Positions 3,160 through 57,210 of a DNA stretch of 64,000 bases are shown one piece after another. Below the pieces are notes generated by a model. It made no database searches, was not told where the DNA came from, and saw only the letters and a program-made list of their open reading frames with translations. The stretch is taken from positions 682,001-746,000 of the forward strand of contig RSEE01000010.1 of NCBI GenBank assembly GCA_003971905.1, given 5' to 3'. Made by a program: the position numbers and the translations under genes. Each line of letters starts with the position of its first letter. Within the stretch, counting starts at the first letter, position 1. This DNA is from Moniliella sp. 'wahieum'. Its lineage: Eukaryota.

Positions 3160-5240
3160 CATTCAGTTCAGACGGTTGAACGTGTTGAACGTTGGGCGTT
3201 GAGCCTCAGCGTTCAGGCTGAGCGTTCAGCTGAACTGGCAAATGCTAATGGCGATTGGATGGTACGAGCCGGCTTGGGATGAGACTATGGGGTGGCACGG
3301 ATACTCCCCAAAAGGACACCAGTCATCGAGTACACGTTGAGTTGCCCAGAATGCACCGTGTTCCCACACGTTGGTATGGGCCGCAGTCACCGGTGACGCA
3401 CCCTGAGGCCTCAGCCTGAGGCCTGACGTGTGACATGTGATGGCCACCGGTCGCCGGACAGGCCAGAACTTGATGATCGATGATCGATGATCTGTGACAT
3501 GCGATCGGTGATCTCACCGGTCACCCGATCAGAGTATTTGTGACATTGATTGTTGAGATGTTGACACGTTGAATGGCTGGCATATTCACGCCTCGGCGTC
3601 ATGCATCAGCTGAGCGCTGAGCCTCAGCAGGGCTGAGCTGGAGCATAGCAGCTATATCGCCAGCCCACCGCCATGGAACCCAGGGTACAATATCGTTCGT
3701 TAATCGGGCTCTCCAATCTCTTACTGTTAGTGAAGCGCCAAAAGACAGCCTAGGCTAGGCGAGTATGTAGGTGACAGTGTAGTATCGGGTGTCGGATTGT
3801 TAGATCTCAAATGCTTGTCAGAGTTCGAGAACGTGGGGCGACGCACGTGGGAGCCCCAGGTTGTGTGTTCGATGATCGATGAATTGGTAAACGAGCACGT
3901 ACTTTAAGATCTAAGATCTAAGAGCATGAGAGTACTCGTACTGAGTACCTGAGAATACAAATGTACTAGCTTGTACTAGCTGGAGTACAGCTAGTTGAGA
4001 CGCACATACACTCCGTGTTCCACTTCTTCATCGAGACGAGGTATGTCGTTCCCGCGGTTTCGTGCTTTCCACAGCCCTGGCTACTCTGACGCTCTCAGAT
4101 ATCAATATATGAATGCGCAGTGCCCGGGGGATCCTAGCACTCTCCTTGTCCGAGGCCCATGGGAGGCGCACTGCCGCGCCGTCCGCCACGTCCAACCGGG
4201 GTGGATGGAGCCACCCTCCAATGAATATTGAATAACCAAGTAAGCGAACACCGTGAACCCTATATCGAAGCACCCTGCCTGGGAAGAAACAGGGTGACTG
4301 TACTGACATGCATGATGCATGACATGTACGAGTACACAGAGTACTCAGACTGAGTAACTGAGTACTGACATTACTGGCATTGAACATGCGACAATGTCAC
4401 AGGTTTTATGGACATGCAACAGGACAGTGCCCCGAAAAGGCTGTAGCTATGCCAGTGCTGTGCCAGTGCTGTGTAGGCTGTGCCTGGACAACGTACACGT
4501 GCTGCTGATAAGGTCGCACACTGCCCCACCGATGCGGGTGCCCACAGAACCCGTAACTTGGGCGAGCGTGGAATCGGGGACGGGGTTGTGGCAGGGTGTG
4601 GCTTGACTTGGTTGTGGCACAATGTTACTGATGCAGATTTTAGTAGTGAATGGCTGGTGGCGGCAGTGGTTTTCGATTGTCGCTTCCCGGTTAATCTTAA
4701 ATGCGGCGATGACATGCCGAAACGCCACAGTTTGTGCTGTTTGTCTCCACACCCGCCACAGCAGACCAGCGGATGGGACACATGTCATTGTCACACATCA
4801 GGACGTCAGGGTGTCAGCACTCAGCATGCCAGCGCCGAGCTGCTGAGGCTCAGGCTGAGCTCCCTACAGCACCCTTGCGGTGATCTAGTCCCGATTCCGC
4901 GGCACCGCCCATTGCACGCAGACGTGGGACACTAATAGTGGCTAGTTGCTATAGTTACTAGTTACTAGTTAAGCTAGTTACCGGTGACGCGGTTATGGCC
5001 GGTTACCGTTATCCCGTTACGCGTTACGCGTTACCGCGTTACAGGCCGGCGAAGTTATGCTTAATACTCTATAGGTACCGGTTAAACACTAACCTTCAAA
5101 CGATAACAAACGTCAGCTGCTTGTTTAGTTCAGCTAGATCGGAGGCGGGGAGGGGGACATTGACGTGTGACGCGCCGAGTACCTGGTACTTAGTCTAGAA
5201 GTGGCGACTAGTGTGATGCGTGATCATGCGTCATACATGT
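3160..5240. repeat. Intergenic island of 7-bp TNA+4 palindromic lattice upstream of SREBP
   Basis: TGA-TCGA-TGA-TCGA-TGA (3474-3490), TAA-GATC-TAA-GATC-TAA (3905-3921), TGA-TGCA-TGA-CATG (4313), TGA-GTAC-TGA (about 4359), TTA-CTAG-TTA-CTAG-TTA (4955-4971), TTA-CGCG-TTA-CGCG-TTA (about 5017-5033). Confidence 0.85.
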
Positions 5241-5384
5241 TCGTTCGCCCGTATCCCCTCGCTCTGCCTCAGCCGCCAGCCCCGGCGGATTGTTGCTATC
5301 GATACCTTTCGCGCCTCTCCTCCGTGGCCCGCCGGGGCTTCTCCACACCTCTCCACCACCACCACTGTGGCTCTTCTCGCCCCC

Positions 5385-8300
5385 ATGGCCGCCCCTGTCC
5401 AGCAGCAGCCGGCGTACGATGGGTCGCTGGCCATGTACCTCAACAGCGTCGCTCTCAACGGTGGTACTCTGAGCCCGCCAGGCCAGGCGTCTGGCGCAGA
5501 GGGCGCACCGTTTCAGGCCTTGCTCTTCCCCGCTCCGTCGCAGCCCTCGCCACCCGACTGTGACTCCGCTGGACAAGCCCCCGTCAATCCCTGCATGATG
5601 CCTCCCACGCAGCTCCAGACGCCCGGCAGAGTATCCGTTAACACCCCGCCCGGCAGCCCCGGCAACCTGCATGAGTTTGGCACTCCTGCGTTTTCTTCTC
5701 ACTCAGCGTCGGAGCCATCATATGGAATGTCGCTCTCCCCGGGCCCGTCTCCCTCCGATGCTTCAGGCGGCTCCTATCCTTTCCAGCAAACCGTAGGAAC
5801 CGATCGCTTTGGGCCGGGCGGTAAGCCAGTCCATGAGGGCCAGTACCCGCAGCTCGGTTTAGACGTTACCACACTGCTCAGCACATACAGCCCATCTGGG
5901 GGAGAGGACCAACAGCAGCATGTGATGGGTTCTTTCCCTTATTCCGATGCTCCTCCGCAGCCGCAGTCTGAGTTCGGGTCCCAACCTCAGTATTCTCAGA
6001 GCATGAGCGGGCTACAACCAGGTTCTGTTGCTCATTGGTCACAGCCAGCGACTGATGCGTCTTCCGGCGATTCAACTCCTTCCCACCCTTTTTCATTTAC
6101 CTCGGCCGGTCCGTTCGGTTATGATCGTGCTTCCAACTCGGGGGTGGATGCACAAGGCACCGCGGCTGGCGCAGTACAATCCAACATCAGCATTCCCCAG
6201 ATGATTCCTTATGGTGGTACTAAGCAGTTTCCATCGGTTACAGAGTCCATGCCATTTCCCCTCGACCTTCCCCACTTCGCTCGCAACGCCCCCTTTCTCT
6301 CTCCCTTTCGAATATCCAAGATGAACCGACAGTCTCCAACTATTTTGGCAGAGTTCCCTTCCAGGGCAGCCGGCCGTCAAGTCACCACTTTCGGCCACCT
6401 TTGCTCCTGATTTGTCTGTCTGGCAATCAATACAGCCAAAAAGGAACAGGCATCACCGCATTCTCCTTCTTCCTCGAGCCCGCCCCTCGTGGAAACTTGC
6501 CGTTTTCGGAAGCCTCTTCGGGCCATGCCCCTCTTCGTGGAAATGTTGGTCCGATCCGCCGTGGTCGTGGCCGGGCCGCGACCCTTGACGGTACGCCTAA
6601 GGACTTGGCCTTAAAACATCATCTCTCCAAACAGACACCGCAAGACGTCGAGGCGAACAAACGTATCAAGTCCGACACTTCATTGGCCCATAAACTTACT
6701 ATTCGCGCCAAGAACATGGTCAAGATCGAAGAACAGAACGACAAGATGAAGTGGGGCATCCTGCCGCCGGGAGGTACGTTTGTTTCTCACTTTCGATTAT
6801 GATTATCATGGATCATGTGGGTTTCAAGTATATTAAGGCTTGCCATACTGACCCTCCATTTCCGGCAGCGTTTGATAACATCAACGCAATCATGATGCAA
6901 TTGCACTATCGGCAGCAAACTCGCCTCATGCAGCAATCCAACCATCCAACACTCTTTCAAGTGCAAGAAGAGGCTGATGAATCTGAACAAACGACGCGAC
7001 GTCGCAACCGACGCAAGGGCTCGGACCCTGACGAGGCAGCGAGGAACAAGGTACCGCACAACGCGATCGAGCGCCGGTACCGTAACAACATCAATGACCG
7101 CATTGCAAGCCTTCGCAATGCAGTTCCAGCCCTGCGCTACCTCAACCCTAAGAACAATGGGGGCTCTACCCCTCTGCTCCCGCGTAAACCGCGGAAAAAG
7201 GGGGAGCCGGAGGACCTAGTGGACGGCATCAGTGTAGCTACCAAACTCAACAAAGCAACCATTTTGGGCAAAGCGACCGAGTACATTCATCACCTCAAGA
7301 AGCGCGAGCTTCATCTGTCGTCCGAGGTGGAGGGATTGAAGGAGCTCATCCGCTCGTTCCGGGGAGGGGACGATGTGCTAATTGTGTGGCTGCACGAGAT
7401 GGAGCAGACGCGACGGGAACGGGATGCTGAGGAGGCCCGGCTCGCCGCTCTGCGGCCCATCAAAGAGGAGGACAAGTCAGACGATCCCATGGATGACTTG
7501 CTACTTGATTCAGAAGATGATTTAGATGATGTTTCGCCCACCGCCTCTGCCTCTGTTGAAGGCTCGTTTGGGGCAGCTCAGTCCACTGGGTCGTATGTGA
7601 TGGCAGCATTCCTCGGTTTCACTCTTATGGGGACCAACCCGACCTGCACCGTCCTGGTTTAACCGCCCACCCTGGGGCGCGCTTTGGGGGCTTCTAAGCA
7701 ACTTTGGAAGCGTTCCTCTCCCTTCACTTCGACCGGGGTGCACGACGACCACATTTCAACTTGGACCCTCGTCTTCGAGGTGGTCCGCTTCCTCACGTTC
7801 ATAACGTGTGCCCTCTTGACGCTTTACCCAATTTCCGCACGATATTCCAGCAATCTTCCACCTACACAAGACCTCTACTGATCGAGGAAAGCGTAATACG
7901 CTTCGCAATCGCCGTATCGCGTTGGACGCGGCCTTGGCCCTTCCCACATTGACTCCGGTTGCGGTGGATCAGGCCCTTCGGTCCTTTGTTTCAGCACCTC
8001 AATCAGTGCTGGGCGTTCTAACTCGTTTAACCGTGACTTATATCGGTTGGCGATGGAGCAGATTCGTTCCACACGATGGCCCTTCAACCTCTATTGGCGG
8101 CCTCCAACCACCACGTCTTCTTTCCACGTTGGCAGCACGAGCGGAGGCGGATGTGTGGACTCGTTTGCTGGGACTCGAGACAGCCTGGGGCGCCTTTGTT
8201 CAACGTTCCCTGTTCCACAAGGTGCACACTCTCCTTCAAGTAGTTCTGATTGCTCGCGCTGTGGACGAGAAGGAGGAACAACTCAGCAACGGGCCTGACG

Positions 8301-9661: not shown

Positions 9662-10367
9662 TACCAAAAAAAGGCCTATCAGTCTCCCTCCCCACCATTT
9701 TTTCCATTGTTTTATCGTTCCTCTGTGTGACCTTGTATCCCCCAGCAGGGGTCAGCCGGTGTTGGTTACAGGGAGAACCATCTCTGCGCTATTCTGCTTC
9801 ATTTGTTTTTTGCTCTTACGATCCCACCCCCACCCGCCTGCCCGCCCGCCATATATGGGACCCTTTTGTTCCCTATGATTTTCGCACCAAAACCCGCCGG
9901 CTCTGACTCTCCCTCTGGTCATCTTCAATACTTCGCTAATAATTCTCCTTTCACAACTCTGTACCCACGTTTGCAACTATTAATAACTTCTCATTTTATT
10001 CTTCCACTGCGCCTCAAAAAACATTGCTTGGGTCTTATAACCCCTCTATAGCCCGGAATGAGTATATTTATAGTCCGGTATAGGAGGTGAACAATAACAA
10101 CTCGGTCTATTAGTTTTGTCATGGATGAAGAGATGTGAGCAGTGCTATTATGCGTAGAACTGCATTATAGTGATGTACTACGGCAGACAGACAGCGCAGC
10201 GGTCTGAGCTACCAGATTCTGATGAGCGCGAGAACAAAGTAACGAGTTGAGCGAAGAGGTGGGGGTGGTAAGGAAGGATAGAGTGGAAAGCGCCAGCGGT
10301 CTACGAATACTGGTACAAGCGTGGCTTGCAATTACAAAGTCAAGGCCACAAAAGTTATCACCATGAC

Positions 10368-10454
10368 TCCTCAATGGTCCAACGGCTATGATGTCACGCT
10401 TTCAAGCCGTAAGGCAGAACCGTGAAGACCCGGGTTCGACTCCCGGTTGGGGAA
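10368..10454 (+). tRNA. tRNA-Glu(UUC) with a 15-nt intron (10405-10419)
   Basis: Acceptor stem TCCTCAA/TTGGGGA; anticodon arm TCACG-CT-TTC-A-[intron]-C-CGTGA; T-arm CCGGG-TTCGACT-CCCGG. Closely resembles yeast tRNA-Glu(UUC). Confidence 0.93.
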
Positions 10455-10456
10455 CA

Positions 10457-13374: not shown

Positions 13375-14801
13375 GGTTGTAAAAGTGGCGATGGCGATGA
13401 GAGAGGCAAAAGAAAGCGAGGAGAAAGGGGAAGTAAGGAGGAGGGGGGGGGGGGGTGGAGGGAGTGGGGTGGGGGTGTCGTCGAGCGGCAGCCCGGGCAG
13501 CATATTTATACCACTTCTTCCATTCCATATCGCTCACCGCTCACCTGTCTGGTTACACTCCACTAGGACGATAAGAAGAACTGGCACTGGGGCAGTGTCA
13601 TGGGCTGTATCTCTATCGCTGTGGTGGTCGATCATTGATCGATCAACGCAATTAGTAACCCCAGCCGGCCATCCACCTCGCTTTCACAGCGCTGCTGCCG
13701 CCAAGAACTATAACCGGTAACCCACCTCGCCTGCCCGTGAGCGCAGCATCGACTATGGTTGAGGCGCTGCGCCCCGCAACGAGGGACGCCGCCACCACCC
13801 AGGTCCTCAACGTCCCTACCACCTCCCCAACGTCCTCAGCATCCTGCCCCATCCGGTCCCCGGATATGCGCTCTGACACGGCCCTTGCTGGCTTGGCCCG
13901 CGGAAACGGTGAGAAATTAAACATACATGGCCGGCGCCGGCCTGCGGCGCCGGCCTCAAGTTAGTTTCATCTGCGTAATATATTGAACCTTGAATCTACC
14001 GGCGATGTAGGTGGTGGGCAACTTCAACTCATTGTCGTCTCTACACAACATATATACGACTGACAGCGCGGGACCGGCAGTTGCACTGCATTCAGCTTCT
14101 CATCCATATGTCAATCTCATCTCTTAGATCAGGTCGTTGGTCACAACCACGTATAGCGATATAGGAGGCTTCATCCAGGTTAACATTACACCTCTCACAT
14201 ATTCTATTGCCAGAAAAAGCTAGTCTGTCCAAAGAGCCTGACATCCCCTTACAGATGCTGATGCGAGATAACGAAGTGACGAGTTCAGAGAGATAGCCAG
14301 CGGGCGAGCTTGCATAATGCATTGTGATGACGCGTGTGCTGATGTGTTTTCCCACTAATTGGCACTGTGCGGCTCTCATCGACGAGGGGGAGACTGAAGA
14401 GAGACGCTGGCGGTGATCACCCGATCTACTGACGAGAAACGGTGGAATACTGCTACAGTGCGCTGCTGTGACGTTCATGAACACATATATCCACGAAGCT
14501 GAAAGTATAGGAGTGGTATAAGCCTCGCCCAGTGGAAATGAAAAGGCATTTCATTGGGCTTTCATGCAATCTGTAGGAGAAGCCACTGACTACGTGAAAG
14601 AGGACGAAGCCATACTGGATGGATTTGTTTGGACGAAACAATAATGAGAAAGGGCGCTGGGAGGAAACCTGATAGGTATACCGGCCATAGAAAGTCAAAC
14701 ATGATGAAGTGGTCGTCGCAACGATGTATGGATGGCATCGATGACAGTGGACTCAGGGGTAGGAGATTGTGGCTCGACACATTCAAAGAAGCGAACAAAA
14801 A

Positions 14802-16425
<1,624 letters not shown>

Positions 16426-17317: not shown

Positions 17318-17350
17318 ACTAGTCACGCGTCACGCGTCACGCGCCATCAT
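17318..17350. repeat. TNA+4 lattice patch (TCACGCG)3 upstream of ALDH
   Basis: ACTAG-TCA-CGCG-TCA-CGCG-TCA-CGCG with TCA at 17323, 17330 and 17337. Confidence 0.8.
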
Positions 17351-18097
17351 CGAGGCGGATGGGCTGACGGAGCCCACCAACAGGAGCGAGGGAACAGAGA
17401 AGCGTCAGCGCATGTGTCGGCTTATTAGTCCACTGTACTGAGCCCCACACGATCTACTCTTGACCAGAACCCGTGGCGGCAATAAGCCAATTCAATCGGC
17501 TCCGCCACCGGCTTCTGTTTCTCCAGCACAGCCAAGGCCAGGGGCTTTTCCCTCCTATAACAGACAGACGCCTTCTCACCGGCGCCACCCCACATATGCA
17601 CATTTTTTTTCAGAGGTATCGCAAAACCCTTGCGCAAAATACTTCGAGTACACCACAGCTGCTTCAGCACGAGCAAAGGCCGGGGCAGGGATGAGAGAAA
17701 CGCGTCGCCTATCCTGATACTGCATAATATACTTAGTTCATCTTTTCTCAGTCCCACCACTACATAGTTGTTGCTTGTGCGCATCAACTAGCCAACGTTC
17801 CGATACGCGGAATCATGTTTTCTATTATACCGCAATGACCTGGCGCGGTCGAGGGAAGAGCGCTATATATTCAATTGACAGCACATGAACTGCATGAACG
17901 ACGCGCTCACACTCTCACGTCCAAAAGTGCGAACAGGTCATTGGCAGCTGAGGAGAAAAGTAACATGTATAACGACAATATATGGGCATATGAAAGACAG
18001 AAACAATACCCCCGTCTTGATGAAGAGAAGGGGGGGGAGGGCGGGAGCAAAACAAACCGGCGGCCATAGTCGGACGGTGGTGTGAACGGTTGGTGTA

Positions 18098-20240: not shown

Positions 20241-20587
20241 TCTTTGACGATGCCCATGATCGATGGGCCAAATGGTGGCGAGGGATGGTGGGAAGAGAAG
20301 GCCGAGAGAAGACTGGGAGTGAGAGGGTCGCGCGATTATACAACGACCGCAACGGGCGATAATCGATAAAGTGAGGTTAGAGACCTTATAGGTAACGAGG
20401 AACTTGGCTTTCCTCAGGCCCAGAAAACACAAACTAGCCGTACGGCGGGAGTGTGAATGCCATCGACCGTTCATGTGTTGGGCGAGAAGATCAAACAGGC
20501 GGCAGCACCAGACATTACTAGTCACTCTGATAAAGGGAGGAATAAAGAATCGTCGCGGTCCGTCTGTGTTCTGGTGACGGATGCCGA

Positions 20588-21990
20588 AGCTCACGCGTCA
20601 CACATCACGCGCTAGTGACTAGTGCTAGTGATGCCTCAGCCTGAGGCTAGCGAGTCCGGGGCCCAGGAGGTCAAATTTAAAGGCCTCAAAGTCAAGCTTC
20701 GAGCTTCGAGGACTAGTGATGCATTCTGGCGTTCACCACGTTCACCCAAGGTCTATTATAGCCTGAAGGACCGCCAGGAGGAGGGGGTGAGAATTATAAT
20801 AGGCAGAAAACGTTTTGGATGTTGACGTTGAAGCTTTGAAGCTTGGAAGCTTGACGTCGATGAACATTATCGATGTTTATCGTTTGACGTTTAAGACGTT
20901 TAAGCTTTAGCTCGATGATTCATCTTGGCCTTCTCCGCTCGGCCAGCCGCTCAGCTTGAGGCCAATGGGCAGCATATCGTCACTAGTCACTCGCGGCCTA
21001 AGATCTAAGAGATCTCCATGTCACATGTCACATGTCACAGGCCGCAGTCACTACTCACCGGCGGTCACATGTCACACATCACGTGCTTCTGAATACTCGG
21101 TACTCGGGCTGTACCAGGCCATATGCTGTACCGTTTCTAAGTTCCGCCCGTCGCCACCTTCCCACACTCAGTTGCATATATTCATCCACACACCCCATCC
21201 CAGACTAGAGGTACCAGCGCGGCGCAATCCAATCTCAAAAACAGCCGACACCAGTCACTAGCACTAGTACTAGTCACTAGTCACCGGTCACAGGTCATCG
21301 GTATATATGAATCATGCACTTTGCAATCAGGATCATTGAACGGCACGGACGCAAAACTGGATGAAAGGCAATGGTGTGGGGTTTTTGGTAAAGGGTGCAT
21401 GTAGCTGGAGTCGGAGGGTGGACAGAAGGAGCGCAGACCGTGGATGGACCGTGGGTGCAATCTTCTTGCACAGATATACGGTCGTCGAGAGTGTTGAGCG
21501 ACACGAGCAGTAAGATGTTGACGCGTTGACGACGCGATTGATCGTTTTCAATTTCCAACTCTCGATAGATCAGGCACGAAAGTCTCTTTTGCGTGCGCGT
21601 CACCTGTCCCTCCTCCCACTGTGTTACCATTTACCCCGTCTTTGGCCTGACTCTGGCCTCTCGTTTTAACGTTTCGGCCGGAGTGCCAGGCCCTCGGCCA
21701 ATTACTGTGGAGATGGAGATATGCCCGGCCGTTTGATGCACGAGCACAAACCGGTGGCAGTGGCCAATGCGGAGTTGAAATCGAAACACGTTGGTTACGT
21801 ACGCCCGCCGCTCTGCTGGCGCCTGCTGGCGCTGAGGCGCTGGGCTGGGGGAGTACTGGGTGAGCCGATCCGATGAAGAGTGATTAATGATCAAGTGATT
21901 GCTGATGCATGTGGTGCATGAGCGCATGATGCATGGCGCATGATGCATGAGCGCATGGGCCTCCGAGGCTGAGGCTCAGCGGGCGCTTAC
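20588..21990. repeat. TNA+4 lattice island in the divergent permease/DHODH intergenic region
   Basis: TCA-CATG-TCA-CATG-TCA (21021-21037), TCA-CTAG-TCA-CCGG-TCA-CAGG-TCA (21274-21297), TGA-TTAA-TGA (21881), repeated TGATGCA/TGAGCGCA (21900-21957) and AAGCTT units (20829-20854). Confidence 0.85.
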
Positions 21991-22088
21991 TAATACACTG
22001 AAGCCAGGAGTTCTGGCCTGTTCTGGCTCGCTGGCGGGCCACCTTCTGTTCTCTTGACAACTCTTGGCCTCTCCCGACGACCTGGGCC

Positions 22089-23852
22089 ATGCTGCGTATC
22101 AAGTGCGACACCCGCGTGGTACTCCCCACGGTCCGGGCCGCTACGGCCTCTCCTTTGCTCCGGACGGCTGTACCGGCTCGCACCCTCTTCACCCGCCGCC
22201 ACGTGTCGGCTCCTCGCAATGGGGCGTGCGGGCCGCCTTGGCTGTCGGCTCGGTGGTGGGGTTGGCGTACTACTTTGATTCCCGTTCGGCGGTGCACCAG
22301 TATGTGTTGACCCCGCTGGTACGCAATCTGTTCGATGCCGAGACGGCACACCGACTCGCGGTGCTTACATTTGCATCGGGCCTTGGATCGCGCGACTTGG
22401 TCGCCGACGATCCTGTGCTGGCCACCAGCCTGTTTGGCAAGCCGCTCTCCAACCCCATTGGCGTTGCGGCCGGGTTTGACAAGAATGCTGAGGCGATCGA
22501 CGGGTTGTTTAATGTCGGGTTTGGTCTGGTGGAAGGGGGAGCGTGACGCCGGTAGCACAGCCGGGCAACCCCAAACCGCGCTTCTTCCGCCTCCCGGCCG
22601 ATCAGGCGGTTATCAACCGGTATGGATTCAACTCGGATGGCATCCCCCCGGTCCTGGCCCGCCTCGAGGCGCGAGTGGGCTTGGCTCCGCCGTACGGCCT
22701 CCGCCTCCGACCCCAGCATTGTCGGGACGTTTGACTGGCCAGGCACGATTGACAAGGTGGTGCCGGATGCGTCTGGTGCTGCGGCCGCGCTTGTCGATGC
22801 GGCCGGAGCCCCCGCAGCCTGCGCCCTAATCACCTGCTGGCGATCAATTTGGGCAAGAACAAGGTGTCGGCTGAGGAGGACGTGAGCGACTACGTGCGTG
22901 GTGTCAAGACCCTTGGACCATTTGCCGACTTGGTGGTGATCAATGTGTCTTCGCCCAACACCCCGGGGCTGCGCAAGTTGCAGCGCAAGGGTGTGCTCAA
23001 CGACTACTCAAGCAAGTCGTTGCGGCTCGGGACGAGATGGTGGCTCAAGCTGGCTTTGCGCCCGCACCTATTGAAACGGCACCAGTGGGCACCGTGCTGG
23101 GGCCAAGGGCATCGTCCCACTCTTGGTTAAAATTGCACCTGACCTCAGTCGGGAGAGCTGGCGGACTTGGCGGATGCGGCTGTTGAGGCAGGCGTGGATG
23201 GGATCATTGTGAGCAATACGACGATCCAGCGCCCTGCGTCGTTGATCCCTTCAGAATGGATGAAGTAGGAGGCTTGTCAGGTGCTCCTCTCAAACCGCTC
23301 TCTCTCCAGGCCCTGCGCACCGTACGGGAACGTGTGGGCCCCACCATGACTCTGATCGGTTGCGGAGGGATTCGGACGGGTCAGGATGCGCTGGACTTTG
23401 CCCATGCGGGCGCATCGGCGGTGGAGCTCTACACATCGTTTGGGTACGAGGGCGTGGGCCTACCGCGGCGTGTGAAGGACGAATTGACGGCACTTTTGCA
23501 CGCAAAAACACCACTTGGGCCGCCGAGGTGGGGCGAAATGCTTCCGGCCGGTTCCGCTGCCACGACTGCAGAGGGCAAGGACCTGAACGCAGCAGCTATG
23601 CAGGATGTGTACCAGAAGAACCAGGCGCAGCTGCAGCAGGGCATCAAGAAGTTACGCGAGGCCGTGCTTGGCCCAGTGACAAGGAGGCGATGGCGGTGCG
23701 TGAGGCGACGAAGCAGCAAGGAGTGGACGCTCTTGAGCCGTTCCGGTCCAAGGCGCGTGCCCTTCCGTTTGGGCCGACCGATGGTTCCTACGTCGAGCTT
23801 TGGCCCAGGCAAACCAGGCGATCGCGTCCTAGAAAGCATAGCAGGAATTTGA
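22089..23852 (+). CDS. URA9: Mitochondrial dihydroorotate dehydrogenase (quinone), class 2; frameshifted
   Basis: Arg-rich presequence plus TM segment, then [82 protein letters not shown] and IGCGGI. Confidence 0.93.
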
Positions 23853-23999
23853 CTCCGGGATGCGTTTCAAAACAAATGCAAAACGTGCAATGCACAAATC
23901 AAGGCCAAATATACTTCAACTAATGCTACGTTGGAGAGGAATCCCGGAGGTGCCTCAAGCTCTTTCTTGGTAGCGGCGTGTGATGATGCAGTAGACACT

Positions 24000-25310
24000 G
24001 GACACCCGATCATCGATCATCAGTCGCTAGCATCACTGAATTCACCGGTCACTTGGACATCCGTTGTGGAGGGCCAACTTTCAAATGCAAAAGAGAGAAT
24101 TACAATTGGTCACGGGGACCCATGCGATGCATGATGGGCGACTTTGAAATTTGACCAGATTAGCCGCTGTTCTGTCCACACACTTGGGTTCAGCAAGTGT
24201 TCAGCCAAGTTGGATCACAAGCGCAGCGGGCAATGCCCAAGTAGGCCGACTCATTCGCAAACATTGCCGTGGTCTGCAATAATCGAATGTCGAGGTAGTG
24301 TTACTTCAAGCTTCAAGAAATTCAAGCTAGCTTCAAGCTTCAAGCTTGACTTGAAACGCGTCCCATTCCAATTTTCACATGTCACGCGTCACGCATCATG
24401 CAACGTTTAATTCAATTAACGTGTTTTAATAGACAGACAGTTCACTACGTCCGACCTGGTCCAACCCAACAATAAGCTCACGGTTCGGACTCGGCCACCG
24501 GGACCGAGGGACCGCCATCAATATTATTTCTTCACCCTCTCGACCATCAGCTTCCAGTCAGTCCGTCGGCGAAGCGTTGACTCAGTGGCGCGTGGGCGCG
24601 TGAGGTCCTGCGATTGCTTTGATGTGCTATCCACAGTTCCACACAGGTAACTTGGTGGCAGCAGGGGTGTGGCTTGGTTTTGATTGTGTGAGACCAGGTG
24701 GCCCCATCCGCCTGGCCCGACGTTGTCTGTGTACACGTGCGATTCGATGAACTGAACTCCCGCCAACATGCAGCACCCCACCCAAGTACCGCCCGGGGAG
24801 TAGGGTGGTGTGGTTGAAGTTGAAGGTTCAAGTTGAACGTTGTTGAAGCCGTGCTGGGAGACGGGAGCGCCACGATCTCAGGAGCGCGTCATGCACGTCA
24901 TGCATCCTCGTGCGTCCAATGATTTCCAAGCCCATTCCAGCACCCAGGCCCTTCCAAGCTCCAAGCCTCGTCTCGGCCGGGAACGGGGAAAGCGGGGAAT
25001 CCAGCGAGTGTGATGATGATGCTGATGCATGGTGCATGATGATGGCCGATGGGTGCGAGCGATGACGTGCATGACGCGTGCAGGTGACGCGTGACGCGTG
25101 ACGTCTGAATAAAGGCCGCAACATGGCGCTCAGCTGAGCCGCTGACATATGACACTGCAGCGCCAGTGCCCTGCTGTGCGGTGCCCGGACAGAGGAGGGC
25201 GACGAGAGGGGCCTGCGGAGGCGGGGTGATGGCAAGCAGCGAGTGCGGCGTCGTGCTTCGTCTGAGTTGGGGGTCTGCATGTCATTGATCAGATCGATCA
25301 TCGATATCCC
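24000..25310. repeat. TNA+4 lattice island upstream of SRPK
   Basis: TCA-AGCT-TCA-AGCT-TGA (about 24333-24349), TCA-CATG-TCA-CGCG-TCA (24375-24391), TGA-CGCG-TGA-CGCG-TGA (25085-25101), TGA-AATT-TGA (24145). Confidence 0.85.
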
Positions 25311-25506
25311 GGGAGAACCATACCGCGTACCGAGTGCCGTTCGCGGTGGCCGTCGCTGTGGCTGTGGCCCTCCACCAGCCACTGCATCCCGGTGCCACAT
25401 CTCTGTGGAGGTTGTGTTGTGTGTGCCTTGCCACCGCCGCTGCAGCGCCACCACCGTCACCACCCACCACCACACACCACCGCAACTGATCCGCTTGGCA
25501 CGCAGG

Positions 25507-28143
<2,637 letters not shown>

Positions 28144-30761: not shown

Positions 30762-31039
30762 GGTGGCCGTGGTGGGGTGGTGATTGCAGTGGTGCTGGGT
30801 TGCCCTAGCAGCCAACGGTGCACGCACAGACAGAAAACATTTTGGAGTCGGTAGACGTGCTTCAGTCAGTACGTACGTAATAGCCTCCAAGTCGCTCTTT
30901 CCGTTCCGCACCGTTCCTTCCGCTGTGATGTGGCGCAACATGCAACAGCTCGCAGATCTGACGAGCAACCTGTGTGACGCGGGTTAGGATTCCGCTGAAA
31001 GGGGATATGCGTTGTGAGATAGATCTGACACGTGAGGTG

Positions 31040-32015
31040 GTGAAGCAATCCTTAACCAGGTGAAGCTTCAACTTGAAGTTCAAGCAGCACGGAGACACAA
31101 CAAGGAGGGGCGGAACAGAGGCGGAGCGGGGCCGCCGCGGCGCCACCTACATCCACACCAACCACACCGCAAGCGCTCGGTGGCCCAGCACACTACATAC
31201 TTACGTACGTTGCGCAAATTTCAAACACGTTTTGCGGGTCCGACGCAGATTGTTTGAATGGGGCCTACTGTGGCCTACTGCGGCTTCCAAGGTCTAGTGA
31301 CTAGTGTACTAGTGTAGTGGCAGTGATGTCATGCATGTCAGGCTCAGCGATGCGGGATGGGTGATGCATGGCAGCGCTATTTGCTGGCATGAATTGAACG
31401 TTGGACGTTGGACGTTGGGCGCTGGGCAGAGGGAGTGCCGGTTGGGCCGCGTGTGGGTCTGCCACCACACGCCGCAACAGGGTGCGACACGGCACTGCCA
31501 CACGCATACGCGGCAAGGCGGAGGGGTCCTAGCGCCTAGCGCCTAGGGACCACGGGGTAAGGTAGGGCAAGGCAGGGCAAGGCAGGGCAAGGCAGGGCAA
31601 GGCAGGGCAAGGCAGGGCAAGGCTATGCTGGCTCCATGGCAGTGATCGAGTGATCGATGATCCCAAATACAAAGCCTCGGCCTGCTGCCCTGGCTGCCCT
31701 GGCCCGGCCGAGCGGAGAGGCGGTCGGAATGAGCAAAGGTTTTAAGTCGAGTGGATTCGTTTGGACCGCATTTTCTTGCCAGACAGAAAAATGGATGGCA
31801 TGGAGCTGCGCCGTATTAGCGCTTAGTCTTTCGCTTTTAAGCGTTGCGCTTTGGCGCTTAGCGCTTAGCGCTAGCAGCGCTGTAGTGCCCTCCAGTGCGC
31901 TGATTCGATGCATCTTCACATCCCTGCGCCTGCTGGTGCCGAGAGCTGTAGGGATTGGCACGTGCTAAGTAGCCGAAGAGTGCTACCTTCTGCAGTAGTC
32001 ACTAGTCATCGATCA
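31040..32015. repeat. TNA+4 lattice island in the divergent Pin1/CENP-B-like intergenic region
   Basis: TGA-AGCT-TCA-ACT-TGA (31061), CTAG-TGA-CTAG-TG-TA-CTAG (31294-31313), TTGGACG repeats (31395-31417), TAGCGCC/TAGCGCT repeats (31530-31546, 31816-31875). Confidence 0.8.
31556..31623. repeat. Decamer minisatellite (GGCAGGGCAA)n, about 6 copies
   Basis: Direct reading: ggtagggcaa followed by five perfect ggcagggcaa units and ggc. Confidence 0.92.
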
Positions 32016-32434
32016 TCCCTCTTGCACCCTCTGCACCATCCTGCATCCCCGCCATTCCGTTGCCATCACCACCGCCATCCCATCCCCATCCCATCACCGT
32101 CACCACCCCTCCCCTGCCGTCTCCCGCGTCCATCTTATCACCGTCACCCCGCCCCCACCTGTCTCCTGACCGACGTCTTGGTGTCTGCTGGCGGCCTCTA
32201 TTGCTGCATCCCAGCTCCGTGCTTGCCTTCCCCCGTCCTCTCCCTCTCACGCGCCCACGCTCAGACGCCCTGCGACCGTCCGCGGAGCTTGAAACGTGCG
32301 TCCTGGAAACTTGGTCTTGACCAAACTTGGCGCCTTCAGCCACAACCGTGCCGTCTGTCCCGCGCTCATCCAGTACGAGGATTAGTTGCCGCTGGCTGCT
32401 TCCCGCTTCCCGCTCCCCGCCTGTCCCCGCATCC

Positions 32435-34198
32435 ATGCCCCTCGCTACCCCCGACGCGACGCCGGCCACAAAGGTGAGTTTTCAGGCTCAGTGCTGGGTG
32501 CCAGTGCAGGTGGCACTCCTACTGCGTCCTTGTGCCCATCTCCCACCCGTCCCATCTTCTCGCTGTCCCAGTCCCTTCTTTATGCGTTACGCGTTACGCG
32601 TTACGGCGCGTCCTGTGATTGTGATCTTGCCTGGGCCGATATACTGACCTCGTCTTGCTTTACAGACTGCGACCCCTTCTAGGTTGCCGTCTCGCTCGGT
32701 TGCCGATGGTCTTCCTCCCGCCCCCGCTCCTGTCCGGGCTCCGCTGCCCCACCCGTATTTTGGGACGACGATGCTCGTCACAGTCGGTCGCACCACCACA
32801 ACCCTCCGGCTTGCCCCTCGTCAAGGCCATGGACGCCAGCACCGTCCGGGGCTACCCGCCCAACTGGCGTTCTGACTTTTCACCGGTACGTTCTACTCTA
32901 GATCGCGTCTCCCCAACTCTCATCTTGATCTACCCTGGCGCCCGTCTTGGCCGCGACACCAGGTATGGTGCATTCACGTACAGTGGAAATGCACCTGCCT
33001 CGAACTCGTCCTCAGGCCTCATCCTACAGTCTTTCGCAGTCTGCTCGCCCACTGAGCAGGCCTACCAGACTCGGATACCGCTCCTCCCCTCTTCCAAACG
33101 GAGCACCGTGCACAGCTCTCTAGCCGAACTCAACCGCACGCCGCACCATGCTGCTTGGGTAGATCATTGGGGTTCGCTTTGCAATGAGCAATTCAGCTTT
33201 AAGTTGTGCATATACGTGATGCTAACCGTTTCCATTTTTTTGTATTTCCTTGCTTTGCTTTTCCCTCCTCTTGCTTCATGCTGGTGCACTACCACCTTTT
33301 AGTTGATGGAGACCAATATGCTCCCACGAGGACAGGCCCCAGGAGACTGGAGTGCATCAAGTTCCCCACGCTACAATATGGCGGCCCCTCCACCAGCGCC
33401 TTCGTTCGCTGGAATGGGTGACCCCCATGCTGCAACGCAATCGTCCATGGCGCCTCAGGGCGCGTACGCCAGCTATGGTGCTCACTTTGGTCCTTACTCG
33501 CCGTCGTCAACACGACCTCCTCCTTCTCTTTATCCACCCGAGCAGGGCGAGCGGAACTTGGCTCTACATCCTAGCCCTTACCTCGCTGGCAGCTATGGTG
33601 CGGCCCTCCTTCTGTCCCCACATCTTCGTATGGCACGTACCCTCCTTCATCTGGGCCCCTTCCTCGACCGGATCGAAGGGGGGTGCCCGGGCCCGAGGGG
33701 CCCGGGGGGCTAGCACCCTTGCATCCATACGGGAGCAACAAGGTGCCCGACCCGCCTTCCTTTGAAGGTGGATCCTCGCTCGTTATGCCTCCCACGGTGA
33801 CTCACAAGCGCCCCAAGTCCAAGATTGACGGTAACATGCGCAAGCAGATTTGCCGCTATGCCGAGCAACACCCCGACTTGCGTCAATCGGACATTGCAGC
33901 AGTGTACCAAGTGGAACGATCGACGGTAAGCAAGATCCTGAAGCAAAAGTACAAATGGCTTGCTCTTCCGGTGGCGGAGGAAGCACCATTGGTGGCCACC
34001 GTTCCACCACCATGCTTCGATCCAAGATCAAGCATGGTCGCACTTCCTCCGCCTCGCCCGGCTCCACCACAGGCTCCTCTATGCCCTCCCCGCACCCAGG
34101 TGTTCCCGCTTCCTTGCAGTCCACCCGACAGGATGATGTTGCCCCGGCATCGGTCAGCACGACTGCCTGCCCTGCTGGATCGGGGGAAGCAACGCTAG
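32435..34198 (+). CDS. Pro-rich protein with a CENP-B/Abp1 N-terminal (psq-type) HTH DNA-binding domain; multi-exon, structure uncertain
   Basis: KIDGNMRKQICRYAEQHPDLRQSDIAAVYQVERSTVSKILKQKYKWL (about 33820-33965) matches the CENP-B N-terminal HTH pattern. GT-AG introns are visible at about 32474-32665 and from 32886. Confidence 0.7.
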
Positions 34199-40823: not shown

Positions 40824-41384
40824 GGCGGAAGCAATGCCTGTGCCGTGGGGGGGGGGGGAGGGGGGGGGGAAGGGGGGGTGGTGGTGAGGGACTGCGCGGG
40901 TGGACACCGAACGAAAGTATACGCCAAGGTCGAAAAAAAAAGGGGCGGAATCAGGTGACGAAATGTCGCATATTCCGCTCAACGCCCCCTCCCCCCCCGT
41001 GGCATCGAGGATTGAATATTGAATGGCGATTGCCGCCAAAGAGCCCTATCGTGCCGGATCTGCCGCATTTGGTACACTATACGGTCCCTTCTTCGATTCG
41101 ATCTACTCAGCATATGGCCCCGCGATAGTTGTGTGCACCAAGTTATAGCACACCGTCATCTGTCCTGGTTTCCATCTTGAACACGACCACCTTCTTGTAC
41201 TCATCGTTGCTAGTGCTATTGGCCAGAGGGTGAGAACGTGCTTACGTTCCGCCGACTTGTTTCAAAATTCCCATCGTAATCCTCCCAGGGCCTCCAGCCG
41301 CCCGCCAGCCACAACAGAGCTGTAGATCAGATCAATCAGAGGCTGTGTTGTGGTCCCACCAACTTCATCTTACGCCTTCGCGTT

Positions 41385-42534
41385 ATGGCCGGACCCCTAA
41401 CTCTGCAAACAGCAATCCCCCTGTCCGATGGGCATGCCATACCTCAACTTGGGCTCGGTGTCTACCTGAGCCGAGGCAGCGATGGTGTGGAATCGTGAAA
41501 CGCGCTTTGGGCCTCGGCGTTCGCCATATCGACACGGCCGTGTGGTATGGGAACGAAGCGACGGTGGGCGAAGGGCTGCACAGTTTTCTCAGCGATCCAA
41601 ACAAGAATACACAGGGCCTCAAGCGTGAGGACGTATTCATCACGTCTAAGATTTGGGACGACCAGCATGAAGGTGCACTCGAAGCGGTTAAGGAGAGCGT
41701 GGCAAAGATTGGCTCCTACCTGGATCTCATGCTCATTCACAGTCCCAACCCTGGGAAAGAAGCGCGGCTCAAGGCGTGGGCCGGATTGATGGAGGCCAAG
41801 AAGCAAGGTTGGTCAAGTCCATTGGTGTGTCGTACGTTAGCTCTCTGCATTGACCATGCTGATGCACCCAGCCGACCTCGTCAGGATGACGAAGCTGACG
41901 ATTTTTTGCAGCAACTATGGTGTGCATCACCTCGAAGAACTGGTTGCTGCTTATCCAAACGAGTGAGTCTGGGGTCCTCTGTGTTTGAATGTTCGAGCTC
42001 ACCTAAATATCGTCTAGTCCTCCTGTTGTCAACCAGATCGAGGTGTCTCCCTTTTTCCAGCGCAAGGATATCATTTCGTCCGCCGTCGTGGCCAAGTACA
42101 AGATTGTCATCGAGGCGTACTCTCCTCTTGGGAAGGGAAAGCATATCGAAGCCCCTGAGATCCATGCTGTGGGACGGGTACGTTGATCCTGTTACTGTAA
42201 CCCATACCCCACTTACTAATCCTGCATTCTGCCTCTCTTTGTGCTGGCGAGCAGAAGCTGGGAAAGACTCCGGCTCAAGTGCTAATTCGCTGGTCGCTCC
42301 AAAAGGGCTACGTGTTATTCCCAAGGGAACCGGGCAGCATGTTGATGAGAATGCAAATGTGTTTGATTTTGCTCTCAGCCCGGATGACATGCGTTTCCTC
42401 GATACTCTGGAGACGGGCGAAGGCGTAACCTGGAATCGTATGTATCGCTGAGCGTGTGTGTGTGTGATTTTGGCCTTGGTGCCCCTTACTGACACGTTTG
42501 TTTTGCCTTGGACCTAGCTTGCCTTGTCCCTTAG
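41385..42534 (+). CDS. Aldo-keto reductase (AKR); several introns
   Basis: IPQLGLGVY, GVRHIDTAVWYGNEATVGEGL, REDVFITSKIW, YLDLMLIHSP, SIGVSNY (spliced), NQIE, AYSPLG, VIPK, ENANVFDFAL. Confidence 0.92.
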
Positions 42535-42699
42535 GATGGTCCTCTGGGCGCCGCTTCGGCGGCTGTATGGGCAGGGTGGAGGAGGTCGAGTACCTTGTCC
42601 AAGGTTCCACCCGTCATCACCTGCGCGTGGATGGGAGGTGGAGACAAGAGGGATCCATCGTTTATCGATTATCTCCCACCTGTGGTCAACCAATCTAGC

Positions 42700-43560
42700 T
42701 GGTCGATGATGATTATCGAGATTATCTATCCCTCTGCTGTGCCATTGCCGAATGCATCATGCCGACTATGATTATCGCCGAGCTTAGCGCTCAGCGCGAG
42801 CACTCGTCGAGACCACAGGGTCATGGTTATTCCTGTTATCGCTCGCTCGCTCGAACAACCACCACTGGCTGCGGGCTTGGTGCTGCGCAAGGCTGCGGAA
42901 GACAAGCGCGTCGGAGTTGCGGCAGACCCTATTGAGGGGCGGAAAGTGGCTGTGACCCAGGCGACTACGCAGCGAACACATCGCCTGTCTGTCCGCAGCT
43001 CAAAGCAGTGTAGGGTGATGGGTGATGGGTGATGGGTGATGGGTGATGGGTGATGGGTGATGGGTGATCGATTGTTGATCGATGTACGAGCTGCTCTTCT
43101 GTGTCCAGATGTGATGCATGTGACATGTGACATGCGACATGTGACATGGACATGTGATAGGCGGGAAGCTGCCTTGCACGGCATGGACCAGCAAGCCTGC
43201 TGCAGCTAGGCTACGCTTGGCAGGCCTGGTTCCGCCCTGGGCACTAGGCACTAGGCACTAACCGGTAACCGGCAACCTGTCAGGCCTTGGCTAAGGCCTT
43301 CGGCCTCCCGCAGGCCTGAGCCTGAGCCTCAGGCCGTAGGCCAAGCCGCGCGTCACGCGTGTCACGCGTCACGCGCCACCAGTCAGGCCATGCATCATGC
43401 ATCGGCTAGGGCCCAGATGCCACCTGCCCAGTGTTGTCCAGCCTGGCCCAGCACAGCCAGGTACAGCAGACACGCCCCGCACGCGCCAGGTGCTGCATGG
43501 TGCACTGCTGCGGACCGTCGGAGGCAGACATGATGCATGATGCATGATGCGTGACGACGT
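42700..43560. repeat. TNA+4 lattice island upstream of annexin, including (TGATGGG)7
   Basis: TGA at 43016, 43023 ... 43065 (8 in register); TGA-CATG-TGA-CATG (43121); TAA-CCGG-TAA (43259); CACGCGT units (43350-43375); TGA-TGCA-TGA-TGCA-TGA-TGCG-TGA (43531-43554). Confidence 0.88.
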
Positions 43561-43667
43561 TCGCGGCGCGTGCATCGCAATACTTAAGTCGCGCCGCCCC
43601 GCCCTCTCGCGCCTGCTCCTCCCCACCCCCCACCCCCACCCCCACGCGCCCGCTGCACCTATCTACC

Positions 43668-45203
43668 ATGTCTGCAAATCCCGGCGGCTACCCCCCCCAG
43701 GGCCCGCCCTACCCCAACTCCGGCTATCCGTCCCAGGCCCCGTCCTACCCCCCGGCCGGCTATCCGTCTCAGGCCCCGCCTACCCCCAGTGGCTACCCCC
43801 AACAGGGCGCCAACCACGGTTTGCTCCCCCTTCCGGCCTTCCTCCCTAACCACCAAACCGGCGGTTACGGCGGCGGCTACCCTCTGGTCCTCCTCAACAG
43901 GGATATGGAGCTCCTCAACAGGGATATGGAGCTCCTCCTGGTCCTCCTCTCATCAAGGATACGGGGCTCCCTCTGGTCCGCCCCCTCATCAAGGATACGG
44001 GCTCCCCCTGGTCCTCCTCAACATGGATACGGAGCACCCTCCGGTCCTCCTCAACAAGGGTACGGTGCGCCCCATGGCCCTCCGCCTCAGCAAGGATACG
44101 GCGCGCCCCCTGGCCCTCCGCATGGGCACCCTGGTAGCTATGGTCCAGGGCAAGGCGCTGCCCCTGCCCATGGCCACGCGGCCGGTGGAACTGGATATAC
44201 GTACCTCGGGATTCCAGTGCCGCCTCCGCCGCCGCACCAAGGGCTGCCCCTGCGCCAGCAATGGATGTATCGGGCAAGGTGGAGCGGATCTACAAGGCGA
44301 TGAAAGGGTTCGGTACGGACGACAACGCTCATCCGCGAACTTTGCTCCCAGCATGATCCCTTTGTCATTGATGCGGTGCGAACGGGTTACAAGCAGTACA
44401 AGGGTAAAGATTTGATGAAGGCGGTGGAGGGGGATGTGAGCGGATGGTACGAGGCGGTGCTGCGCTGGCAAGTGTATGGCCCAGTGATGGGCGATGTGGT
44501 GGCGCTGAAGCGGGCGATGAAGGGAGCTGGGACGGACGAGTCGGTGCTGACCGAGATTCTTTTGGGGCGGTCCAACTCGGATATGCACTTGCTCAAATCG
44601 GCCTACCAAGCCACGTACAGCAAGCGTCTTGAGGATGACGTGTCGGGCGAGCTGTCGTTCAAGACCAATCGTATGTTTGCCCAGGCGTTGGCCGGGGCAC
44701 GGGAGGAACACGCGCCTGTTGACCCTCAACGCGTTGAGGCAGATGTGCGCCAACTGTACACGGCGATGCGCGGAGCAGGCACCGACGAGGATGCTATCAC
44801 TTCCATCCTGCTCTCCCGCAGTGATGCCCAATTGGTCGCGATCGCTCAGCGCTACAGGCAAGTCCACAACAAGGCCCTCTCGTCCGCCTTGGAGGGTGAC
44901 TTTAGTGGGCACATGAAGGAAGGCATTCTCTACATTGTCACTGGAGCCGAAGACCCTGCAGGAGTGCAAGGCTATGGGATCCAGCGCGATGCCAACCTCA
45001 TCTTCAAAGCATTTGATGGTGCTGGCACTAAGGACCGCGACTTGGTTCGGCGTGTGTGTCGTGCGTCGTGGAACCGGGCGCGGTTCCAGGCTGTCAAGCA
45101 GGCGTACCGCCGACTGCACAAGCACGATATCTCGGTTCGCATCAAGCGCGAGACGTCCGGCAACTACGAACAAGCTCTTGTCACTGTTGTTGATACGGCT
45201 TGA
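43668..45203 (+). CDS. Annexin with a long Pro/Gly/Tyr/Gln-rich N-terminus (annexin A7/A11-like fungal annexin)
   Basis: Annexin repeats AMKGFGTD, AMKGAGTDESVLTEILLGRSN, AMRGAGTDEDAITSILLSRS, AFDGAGTKD and ETSGNY. The N-terminus carries GYGAPPGPP repeats. Confidence 0.93.
43885..44120 (+). repeat. Coding tandem repeats (GPPQ/HQGYGAP units) in the annexin N-terminus
   Basis: Recurring ggtcctcctcaacagggata/caaggatacggggctcc units about 21-33 nt long. Confidence 0.75.
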
Positions 45204-55832: not shown

Positions 55833-56910
55833 ATGTGGGCCGCTAATTCTCGCCGCATACTGCCCTGGGCTGCATCTTCAACTCACCTCCGCCCCCTCCC
55901 GCTCCTCCGCTGCTTTACCACTGCGCCCCCGACTGGCCAAACAGTCCCTCTTGCGTTTGACCACTACCCCCTGCCTCTGGTGATGGCCCATCCACGGTCC
56001 GGGACGCTGGCGTGGGTTCGGTTGTCCTAGCACATGGCCTCTTTGGGTCTAAGCAAAATTGGCGGAGCGTGGCGCGTGACATGGCTAAGCGCTTTGGCGT
56101 GCCAATCTACGCGGTCGACCTGCGCAACCATGGCCAGAGCCCTGTGATCGATGGCATGAACTATGTCGACATGGCGTCAGATCTTGTTCGCTTTTTTAAA
56201 GAACGTTCGCTGGAGCAGGTACTATTGGTGGGCCACTCAATGGGGGTAAAGCCGCCTTGTCCACTGGCTTGAGCCCTCGTCTCTCTACTGGTGTCCTTTC
56301 GGGGCTGGTCAGCGTCGACATGGCTCCTTCCCGGGGAACTCTCAGCAACGACTTCGTGGTATGTGCAGTGTGGTCATTTGCTTCTTGTCTGACGCTCTAT
56401 TCCTGCCCAGGCGTATCTGGACGCTATGATCACCATCCGCGATGCCAAAGTAGCCACTCGCAAGCAAGCGGACGAGATTTTGGCCAAAACCGAATCGGCG
56501 GTAGGCATCCGCCAATTCCTCCTGACAAACCTGGAGCGCAACCCGCCTGATTCCCAGCATTGGTCCTTCCGCATTCCCTTGGACATTCTGAAGCGTCATT
56601 TGGATCAAATTGGTGATTTCCCATATGAGCCTGGCAAAGTTTCGCCCTCACAAGGGCGAACTCTGTTCATCAAAGGGGAACGAAGCAAGTACGTTGTCTG
56701 TTATTGCTCCCATTGGCCCTTGACCACTTATGCCATACTCACCTTTCTGTGCACAGCTATATCAACAAGAACAACGTCCCTGTTTGCAACACTCTCTTCC
56801 CACACAACAGCATTACTACTCTACCCACCGGCCACTGGGTTCACGCCGAACAACCGCGCGCGTTTATCGATACCGTTGAGGCCTTCGCACTGGGGAAACC
56901 ATCTATCTGA
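55833..56910 (+). CDS. Mitochondrial alpha/beta-hydrolase, ABHD11/Imo32-like; introns at about 56359-56410 and 56689-56756
   Basis: HGLFGSKQNWRS, VDLRNHGQSP, nucleophile GHSMG, VDMAP, IRQFLLTN, TLFIKG, GHWVHAEQP. Confidence 0.9.
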
Positions 56911-57049
56911 CCCCATCTTCACTCGATTAATCTAATCTTGCATCGCTTCCACGTTGACAGTCCCGAGTCAAGTCACGCAGCCAACGAGCTCTCTTTGTTG
57001 GTGGGGTGGGGAGAAGTGTGTCAGTAGCCAGTAAAAGTAAATGGGGCGC

Positions 57050-57210
57050 AGGCCTAGCGCGCCTAGCACCACCCATACTCTTCGATTGCGCGCAGTAGAG
57101 ATGGCAGGCCTACAGTCGCTCAGCCTGAGAGCTTGAATCAACACGTTCAATGTTCAATGTTCAATTTTCAATTTTCAATGTTCAATATCCCATGTGAACG
57201 TTACGTAACA
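57050..57210. repeat. TNA+4 lattice patch (TCAATGT/TCAATTT)n upstream of YOS1
   Basis: TCA at 57147, 57154, 57161, 57168, 57175 and 57182. Confidence 0.85.

Follow-up and report, generated by a model that had tools for sequence, protein, structure and literature searches.

The 64-kb stretch of DNA analysed here (the window, numbered from its first base) has a G+C content of 57% and carries ordinary eukaryotic genes, and clustered in the DNA upstream of genes are short direct arrays whose 7-bp units are near-palindromes centred on the triplet TNA. This pattern is real, highly significant and lineage-restricted, and it suggests that promoter DNA is written or used here in a manner not yet described. 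The gene map was built from Pfam domains on the 219 open reading frames (ORFs) of the window, and gene positions are those of ORFs and domains only. It comprises a plus-strand gene for a bHLH factor (5217-7659) and genes for an indoleamine dioxygenase-like protein, an aldehyde dehydrogenase (domain match 2.2e-71), an amino-acid permease (minus strand), a dihydroorotate dehydrogenase (plus strand), a protein kinase (plus strand), a Pin1-type rotamase (minus strand), a UTP10/BP28 protein, an aldo-keto reductase, an annexin (plus strand, annexin domains at 44304-45200), a Snf2/Sth1 ATPase (SNF2 domain match 1.2e-94), BRCA2, an HSF-type factor and an Arf GTPase. Compared with a protein database, the Snf2 exon shows 59-64% identity to proteins of Tilletiaria, Pseudozyma, Thecaphora, Malassezia, Ustilago, Tilletia and Exobasidium, and the host, judged by sequence, is a fungus of the Ustilaginomycotina. 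The closest match to this exon is an assembly-derived protein with 81% identity, all named species being at or below 64%, which implies that a closer relative has been sequenced.

Exact tandem arrays of period 7 (at least two copies) number 41 across the whole window, against 4.3 ± 2.1 in block-wise dinucleotide shuffles (30 shuffles for array counts, 20 for the counts of TNA pairs) and about 8 predicted from the array density of 503 kb of natural control DNA. Most hold two or three copies. Smaller excesses are found at period 8 (11 against 1.0 shuffled) and period 9 (9 against 0.3), and some of the period-8 units consist of an A-core-T hexamer plus two bases. A first-pass annotation of the window had described TNA triplets recurring every 7 bp with a usually palindromic 4-bp core between them, and this periodicity does rise above the shuffled background, with 206 TNA pairs spaced 7 bp apart compared with 136.6. 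The autocorrelation of TNA at lag 7 is 1.79-fold across the whole window and 3.54-fold in the approximately 10 kb of upstream islands described below, where the other 15 classes of the form xNy reach 1.3- to 2.4-fold; at lag 3 it is 0.74 in the islands and so not elevated. Lag-7 chains of TNA mostly run to two or three units, nine of them having at least four, compared with none or one at lags of 5, 6, 8, 9 and 10.

It is extremely improbable that these arrays are an artefact of sequencing, assembly or polishing. The neighbouring coding regions are intact and give the strong SNF2 and aldehyde dehydrogenase matches cited above, the arrays avoid coding DNA, and many different units occur together with point-mutated copies; we know of no platform error that writes sequence-diverse palindromic heptamers.

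The core between TNA pairs at lag 7 is palindromic in 74 of the 206 pairs (36%), with 8.7 expected, and TNA alone stands out among the 16 xNy classes, the palindromic share in the other 15 being 3.5-9%. All 14 core types cited by the first-pass annotation were recovered, namely GGCC (3404), TCGA (3474), GCGC (3611), GATC (3905), ATAT (4222), TGCA (4313), GTAC (4359), CTAG (4955), CCGG (4978), CGCG (17323), CATG (21021), TTAA (21881), AATT (24145) and AGCT (24333). A fifteenth type, ACGT, is found at 40400 inside a long ORF, and TATA does not occur among the TNA-core-TNA matches of the window. Odd pseudo-palindromic units (XYZ-N-Z'Y'X' in some rotation) make up 24 of the 41 period-7 arrays and are centred on TNA in 23 of these 24, which fall by hand sorting into 13 arm classes. 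The 11-mer d-e-f-g-g'-f'-e'-d-e-f-g occurs 43 times (0.67 per kb) when e is A, against 1.2 in shuffled sequence, and once each when e is C, G or T; the base preceding it is T in 37 of the 43 cases. There are 287 six-base palindromes of the A....T form, against 183 ± 17 shuffled, the T....A, C....G and G....C forms being at expectation, and TNA-centred 7-mers are in excess both overall (270 against 187) and when isolated (234 against 187), as are isolated TNA-centred 9-mers (82 against 48). Heptamers centred on ANT are not enriched (194 against 204 shuffled).

The arms of the units can thus be of any sequence, yet they match each other, and only the T and the A beside the centre are fixed. The first-pass annotation had held that the invariant is a geometry and not one motif, and the 13 arm classes, with their covarying arms, bear this out. 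A protein consensus would yield a palindromic logo, not palindromic individual sites, and matching arms of arbitrary sequence therefore argue for strand-copying or base-pairing and not for such a consensus. Of the A-core-T hexamers, 47% are flanked by T at position -2, 38% by A at +2 and 37% by G at -3; some two thirds have G or C at +/-1. The centre bases of the hits are C in 56 cases, G in 54, T in 24 and A in 14, and the two units of a pair share the same centre base in 63 of the 74 hits, carrying complementary bases in five and otherwise different bases in six, so that the units form direct repeats. The repeat continues into both flanks in 21 hits, into the right flank only in 18, into the left only in 18 and into neither in 17. 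Unlike neighbouring cores are mostly one or two substitutions apart (three pairs are two different palindromes), which suggests neutral decay. A core followed by its reverse complement was found in none of 35 triples. Among the 17 non-palindromic period-7 arrays just five contain TNA by hand reading, about the number expected by chance.

These properties were also compared with an origin in replication that needs no dedicated nuclease. On this view a short self-complementary stretch, folding up in a displaced flap or a nascent strand, would avoid removal of the flap or cause the template to be switched, and would be duplicated as a result; quasi-palindrome correction would keep the arms symmetric, and given a weakness peculiar to this lineage in the processing of flaps or hairpins, such events would be frequent. 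The covariation of the arms speaks for this origin. Six array-rich stretches folded as single-stranded DNA gave z scores of -1.1 to -4.9 relative to shuffles, somewhat better than chance, with two of the six beating all 200 shuffles, and the predicted folds of dense stretches often place TNA in a triloop. Exact palindromic arrays do not exceed 3.3 copies whereas non-palindromic period-7 arrays reach eight (GGGTGAT at 43013, for example), as expected if long near-palindromes are unstable, and the over-representation of periods 8 and 9, including the period-8 units built on A-core-T hexamers, is in keeping with it as well. Duplications bounded by short repeats are, moreover, the signature of rad27/FEN1 defects. 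Yet the sharp preference for 7 bp and the absolute requirement for T...A among four symmetric triplets are left without a reason, 3-bp arms are too short to give a single 7-mer a stable hairpin, which leaves the first duplication unexplained, and the preference for upstream over other ORF-free DNA is not accounted for. We regard a replication origin as unlikely on this balance.

Eight upstream regions, 10.5 kb in total, contain 61 of the 74 TNA-core-TNA hits, and 6.2% of their bases lie in exact period-7 runs compared with 0.17% elsewhere. The first-pass annotation had described a window-wide lattice; the pattern itself stands, but its extent does not, given this concentration and the shortness of most chains. 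Some ORF-free stretches (57658-58857, 10049-10366 and 972-1299) have no hits. By hand reading of the hit lists, the centre base has no uniform orientation with respect to the adjacent genes. TNA stands for TGA, TAA and the reverse complement of each, and a 7-bp period runs through all three reading frames, so that such arrays could not survive in coding DNA; the stop codons that they contain explain their absence from exons whatever their origin.

Inspection of the sequence itself at 3100-5100, 20560-22000, 23950-25150 and 42900-43700 makes the pattern visible as short runs of different units grouped closely together. Island A (2795-5216), an ORF-poor region upstream of the bHLH gene, has 21 TNA-core-TNA hits. 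Its densest stretch, at 3384-3530, contains the chains TCA-CCGG-TGA, TGA-GGCC-TCA and TGA-GGCC-TGA-CGTG-TGA-CATG-TGA, has a single-strand fold z score of -2.1 and includes (GATGATC)x3 at 3472-3492. It is followed by (TAAGATC)x2.7 at 3905-3923, with the unit TCT-A-AGA, and by a TTA-centred chain at 4952-5042 made up of (TAGTTAC)x2.9, TTA-CCGG-TGA and (CGTTACG)x2.9. At 17322-17343 is (GTCACGC)x3.1, with the unit CGT-C-ACG, one of four sites of CGT-S-ACG arrays; the others are at 24381, 25084 (with the opposite centre base) and 43361. Island B (20598-22057) occupies the divergent gap between the genes for the amino-acid permease and the dihydroorotate dehydrogenase, and holds (CATGTCA)x3.3 at 21017-21039, a CACTAGT/GTCACCG chain at 21249-21302 and TGCATGA/GCGCATGA at 21912-21958. 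Island C (23850-25542), upstream of the protein kinase gene, has (CGATCAT)x2.1 at 24007, (CTTCAAG) arrays at 24304-24347 and (GTGACGC)x2.9 at 25084-25103.

Island D (30984-32624) lies between the Pin1-type rotamase gene and a plus-strand ORF, with (GCGCTTA)x2.7 at 31854, TCA-CTAG-TCA-TCGA-TCA at 31999 and (GCGTTAC)x3.1 at 32584. It also contains, at 31555-31623, an array of (GGGCAAGGCA) in about 6.9 copies with 96% matches at period 10 (or GGCAA x11.6), which is unrelated to the TNA units. Island E (42449-43668), upstream of the annexin gene, carries (GGGTGAT)x8 at 43013-43068, (CATGTGA)x6 at 43117-43157, (TAACCGG)x2 at 43259, (GTCACGC) at 43361, (CATGCAT) at 43389 and (CATGATG)x3.1 at 43529-43550. 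At 57145-57186 is (GTTCAAT/TTCAATT)x6, of period 7, containing TCA and with non-palindromic arms. This array and the non-palindromic GGGTGAT array are the two longest of period 7, and as both, though containing TGA or TCA, are non-palindromic in their arms, period-7 expansion is not limited to palindromes. Composite blocks of the forms TCAC-GCG/ATG-TCACACATCACG-C/T-GC and CGYGTCACGCGTCACGCGCCAYCA recur in different upstream regions with 76-84% identity, as in the pairs 20584-20621 and 21058-21095 (76% over 38 nt) and 17326-17356 and 43358-43388 (84% over 31 nt); they may be cis-elements common to these regions, or the process behind the arrays may have produced them.

Other features of the window include a plus-strand tRNA gene at 10368-10454 (Rfam RF00005, 45.8 bits), situated between the genes on the bHLH side and the dioxygenase-like gene; it was the sole match in an Rfam scan of the window. 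At 87 nt against a 71-position model it probably contains an intron. The N-terminal part of the annexin gene, before the annexin domains, has coding repeats of 33-36 bp rich in Pro, Gln, Gly and Tyr (43685-44119). Two G-rich tracts of about 32 nt, with long runs of G and few interruptions, lie near the 5' ends of minus-strand genes at 13443-13475 and 40847-40878 and are 72% identical to each other over 54 nt (family D5).

As natural controls we used 38 eukaryotic, mostly fungal, metagenome loci (503 kb), retrieved through the Snf2 exon at 28-70% identity. Palindromic cores make up 162 of 2313 TNA pairs in these loci (7.0%, compared with 36% in the window) and the 11-mer signature was counted 15 times (0.03 per kb, compared with 0.67 per kb in the window). 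The controls have 65 period-7 arrays, of which five are pseudo-palindromic and one is centred on TNA. The absence of the pattern from these loci indicates that neither fungal DNA at large nor period-7 repeats as a class carry it. No account of TNA-centred heptamer arrays in fungi came up in a search of the literature; in the text available, PMC3152781 and PMC7218506 concern repeats of other kinds. The ATTCACG heptamer repeats of Ustilago maydis, which the first-pass annotation had cited, could not be verified in the literature searched; the likeness to Ustilago that it suggested is correct at the rank of subphylum.

The concentration of the arrays upstream of genes, divergent gaps included, is strong and speaks for a selected promoter architecture, in which 7-bp near-palindromic repeats would exclude nucleosomes, extrude small cruciforms or bind dimeric factors, homotypic clusters of palindromic hexamers (ACGCGT, ACATGT, ATGCAT, ATCGAT and others) being offered to several such factors in both orientations of a divergent promoter. 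Units and short composite blocks also recur at unlinked promoters, as with CGT-S-ACG at its four sites. Words such as ACGCGT and those like TCACGTG resemble known fungal cell-cycle and Cbf1-type sites, and yeast has examples of unstable promoter repeats by which expression is tuned. Against selection, however, 15 different palindromic cores are beyond reading by a single protein, direct repeats with the same centre base give no inverted half-sites, and bZIP-type heptamers centred on A-S-T are not enriched; the units decay by point mutation, their orientation relative to genes is mixed, some long upstream or ORF-free stretches have no arrays, and the genes that would be served are functionally unrelated. 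The selected lattice read by an oligomeric protein, one of the two options offered by the first-pass annotation, found no direct support: chains are short, units diverse and orientations mixed, and some upstream DNA is free of hits. A selected architecture is, in our judgement, quite unlikely, and a mutational origin is probable.

Of the mutational processes considered, we tentatively favour, at somewhat less than even confidence, a lineage-specific one in which the arrays derive from the repair of hairpin-forming breaks of the transposon-footprint type. We infer the breaks, the hairpins and the enzyme behind the observed statistics, arm covariation, direct repeats, upstream clustering and absence from control loci. 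In this process a 7-bp tandem duplication would arise at, or in the course of creating, a short odd palindrome XY-T-N-A-Y'X' in accessible upstream DNA, through two-fold-symmetric, hairpin-forming double-strand breaks and their subsequent repair. Hairpin opening would copy flank sequence across a single apex base, giving odd palindromes of any sequence, and target duplication would give the 7-bp period. The left-only and right-only flank matches, 18 of each, fit a duplication of five bases plus two inverted bases. Repeated local events in nucleosome-free promoter DNA would produce the clusters, and the copies would afterwards decay by point mutation. hAT elements prefer nucleosome-free 5' regions and hop locally. 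The breaks could come from cut-and-paste transposons that duplicate about 7 bp (such as the hAT7-like or Kyakuja-like elements of Basidiomycota) or from a nuclease derived from one. Odd palindromes of exactly this sort are known from the repair of hairpin-capped ends after hAT excision. In the accessible portion of PMC5873905, the footprints left by hAT excision are P-nucleotide insertions with palindromic symmetry about one base, the arms being at least 3 nt long in 47% of the footprints in Saccharomyces cerevisiae, and in that of PMC12730594, 7-bp target duplications are given for hAT7 in Pucciniales and for Kyakuja in Laccaria.

Several observations weigh against this break-and-repair process. 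Pfam found no transposase domain in the 219 ORFs of the window, and a scan of the window for elements bounded by terminal inverted repeats with 5- to 9-bp duplications returned only chance-level matches or the arrays themselves. The apex of a hAT hairpin is the complement of the flanking base, which predicts differing centres, whereas the centre is the same in 63 of 74 pairs. The canonical hAT target, nTnnnnAn, predicts ANT centres, and it is TNA that is enriched instead, ANT standing at 194 against 204 shuffled. A variant of the model predicts alternation of a core with its reverse complement, of which the 35 triples gave no instance. As the non-palindromic arrays have no TNA enrichment, the preference for TNA and the palindromy cannot be separated into a target preference and a symmetrisation, and in places the process would call for dozens of independent events inside 150 bp. 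It is the failure of the two hAT predictions (the complemented apex and the ANT centre), together with the absence of an element from the window, that keeps our confidence tentative.

Other candidates were tried and set aside. If transposon ends had left 2+2 bases between TNA duplications, a separate family would be required for each of the 15 cores. P-nucleotide models with any apex-flanking base do not fit, as only e = A is enriched, and footprints giving alternation of a core and its reverse complement had no example in the 35 triples. A stop-codon barrier in all frames does not account for the palindromy of the cores or for the mixture of strand orientations. Readings based on a single factor, whether bZIP, CRP-like or other, were ruled out by the diversity of units and their direct orientation.

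The other option of the first-pass annotation was a mutational scar involving hairpin repair, and in outline this is the best fit; the enzymes that the annotation named do not fit. PIF/Harbinger and IS5-type elements duplicate 3 bp, whereas the unit duplicated here has 7 bp; at lag 3 the TNA autocorrelation in the islands is 0.74, and the window has no transposase. Somewhat doubtful, but compatible with the findings, is the further proposal that this lineage has an undescribed two-fold-symmetric nuclease or transposase-derived enzyme that recognises TNA in accessible promoter DNA, its repair products (a duplication of 7 bp together with arms copied from a strand) continuously rewriting upstream regions. 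The result would be an endogenous mutational signature of a new kind, creating promoter sequence de novo and perhaps since co-opted for regulation. More generally, if the pattern is a mutational signature, the promoter DNA of a eukaryote would be largely shaped by one specific break-and-repair chemistry, with unit, arm and centre base as a read-out from which the cut geometry of the enzyme could be deduced. If selected, it would represent a promoter grammar of DNA symmetry and spacing instead of particular words. In either case the palindromic-core fraction between lag-7 TNA pairs, 36% here and 7% in the controls, provides a simple test that can be used on every fungal genome to map the origin of the process.

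Comparison with known systems shows partial likenesses to each of several. The sites of bZIP factors (TGA-S-TCA of AP-1/Gcn4 and TTA-S-TAA of Yap) are, like the units here, 7-bp odd palindromes with a free centre, rich in TGA and TCA. Their inner triplet, however, is A-S-T, a class not enriched in the window, where the arms vary freely and there are no inverted half-sites. Bacterial heptamer hairpin repeats, such as the cyanobacterial STRR and the Xanthomonas GGGAATC repeats, have in common with the window a 7-base period, an intergenic location and hairpin potential; the bacterial arrangement of a heptamer array with an inverted array, forming a long perfect hairpin, does not occur in the window, whose arrays are direct, each unit being a near-palindrome, in a fungal host. 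Microsatellites and unstable tandem repeats of fungal promoters also lie head to tail upstream of genes at low copy number and decay by point mutation, but microsatellite units are 1-6 bp long, whereas those in the window are 7 bp, near-palindromic and of many types with a fixed TNA centre. The footprints of hAT elements (Ac/Ds, Tam3 and Hermes) are, in the available text of PMC5873905, inverted repeats of the flank centred on a single base and of arbitrary sequence, as are the units here. They sit inside a short direct duplication, classically of 8 bp and, in the part of PMC12730594 available, of 7 bp in the basidiomycete hAT7; period 7 dominates in the window, where nothing links the duplication to an element. 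Differences from hAT footprints lie in the centre base, which in footprints is complemented between copies whereas window units share it in 63 of 74 pairs and complement it in five; in the canonical target, which gives an ANT and not a TNA centre; and in the exact arrays of the window, multi-copy exact arrays being atypical of footprints. The preference of hAT elements for nucleosome-free 5' regions, combined with local hopping, would give clusters in promoters such as those observed here.

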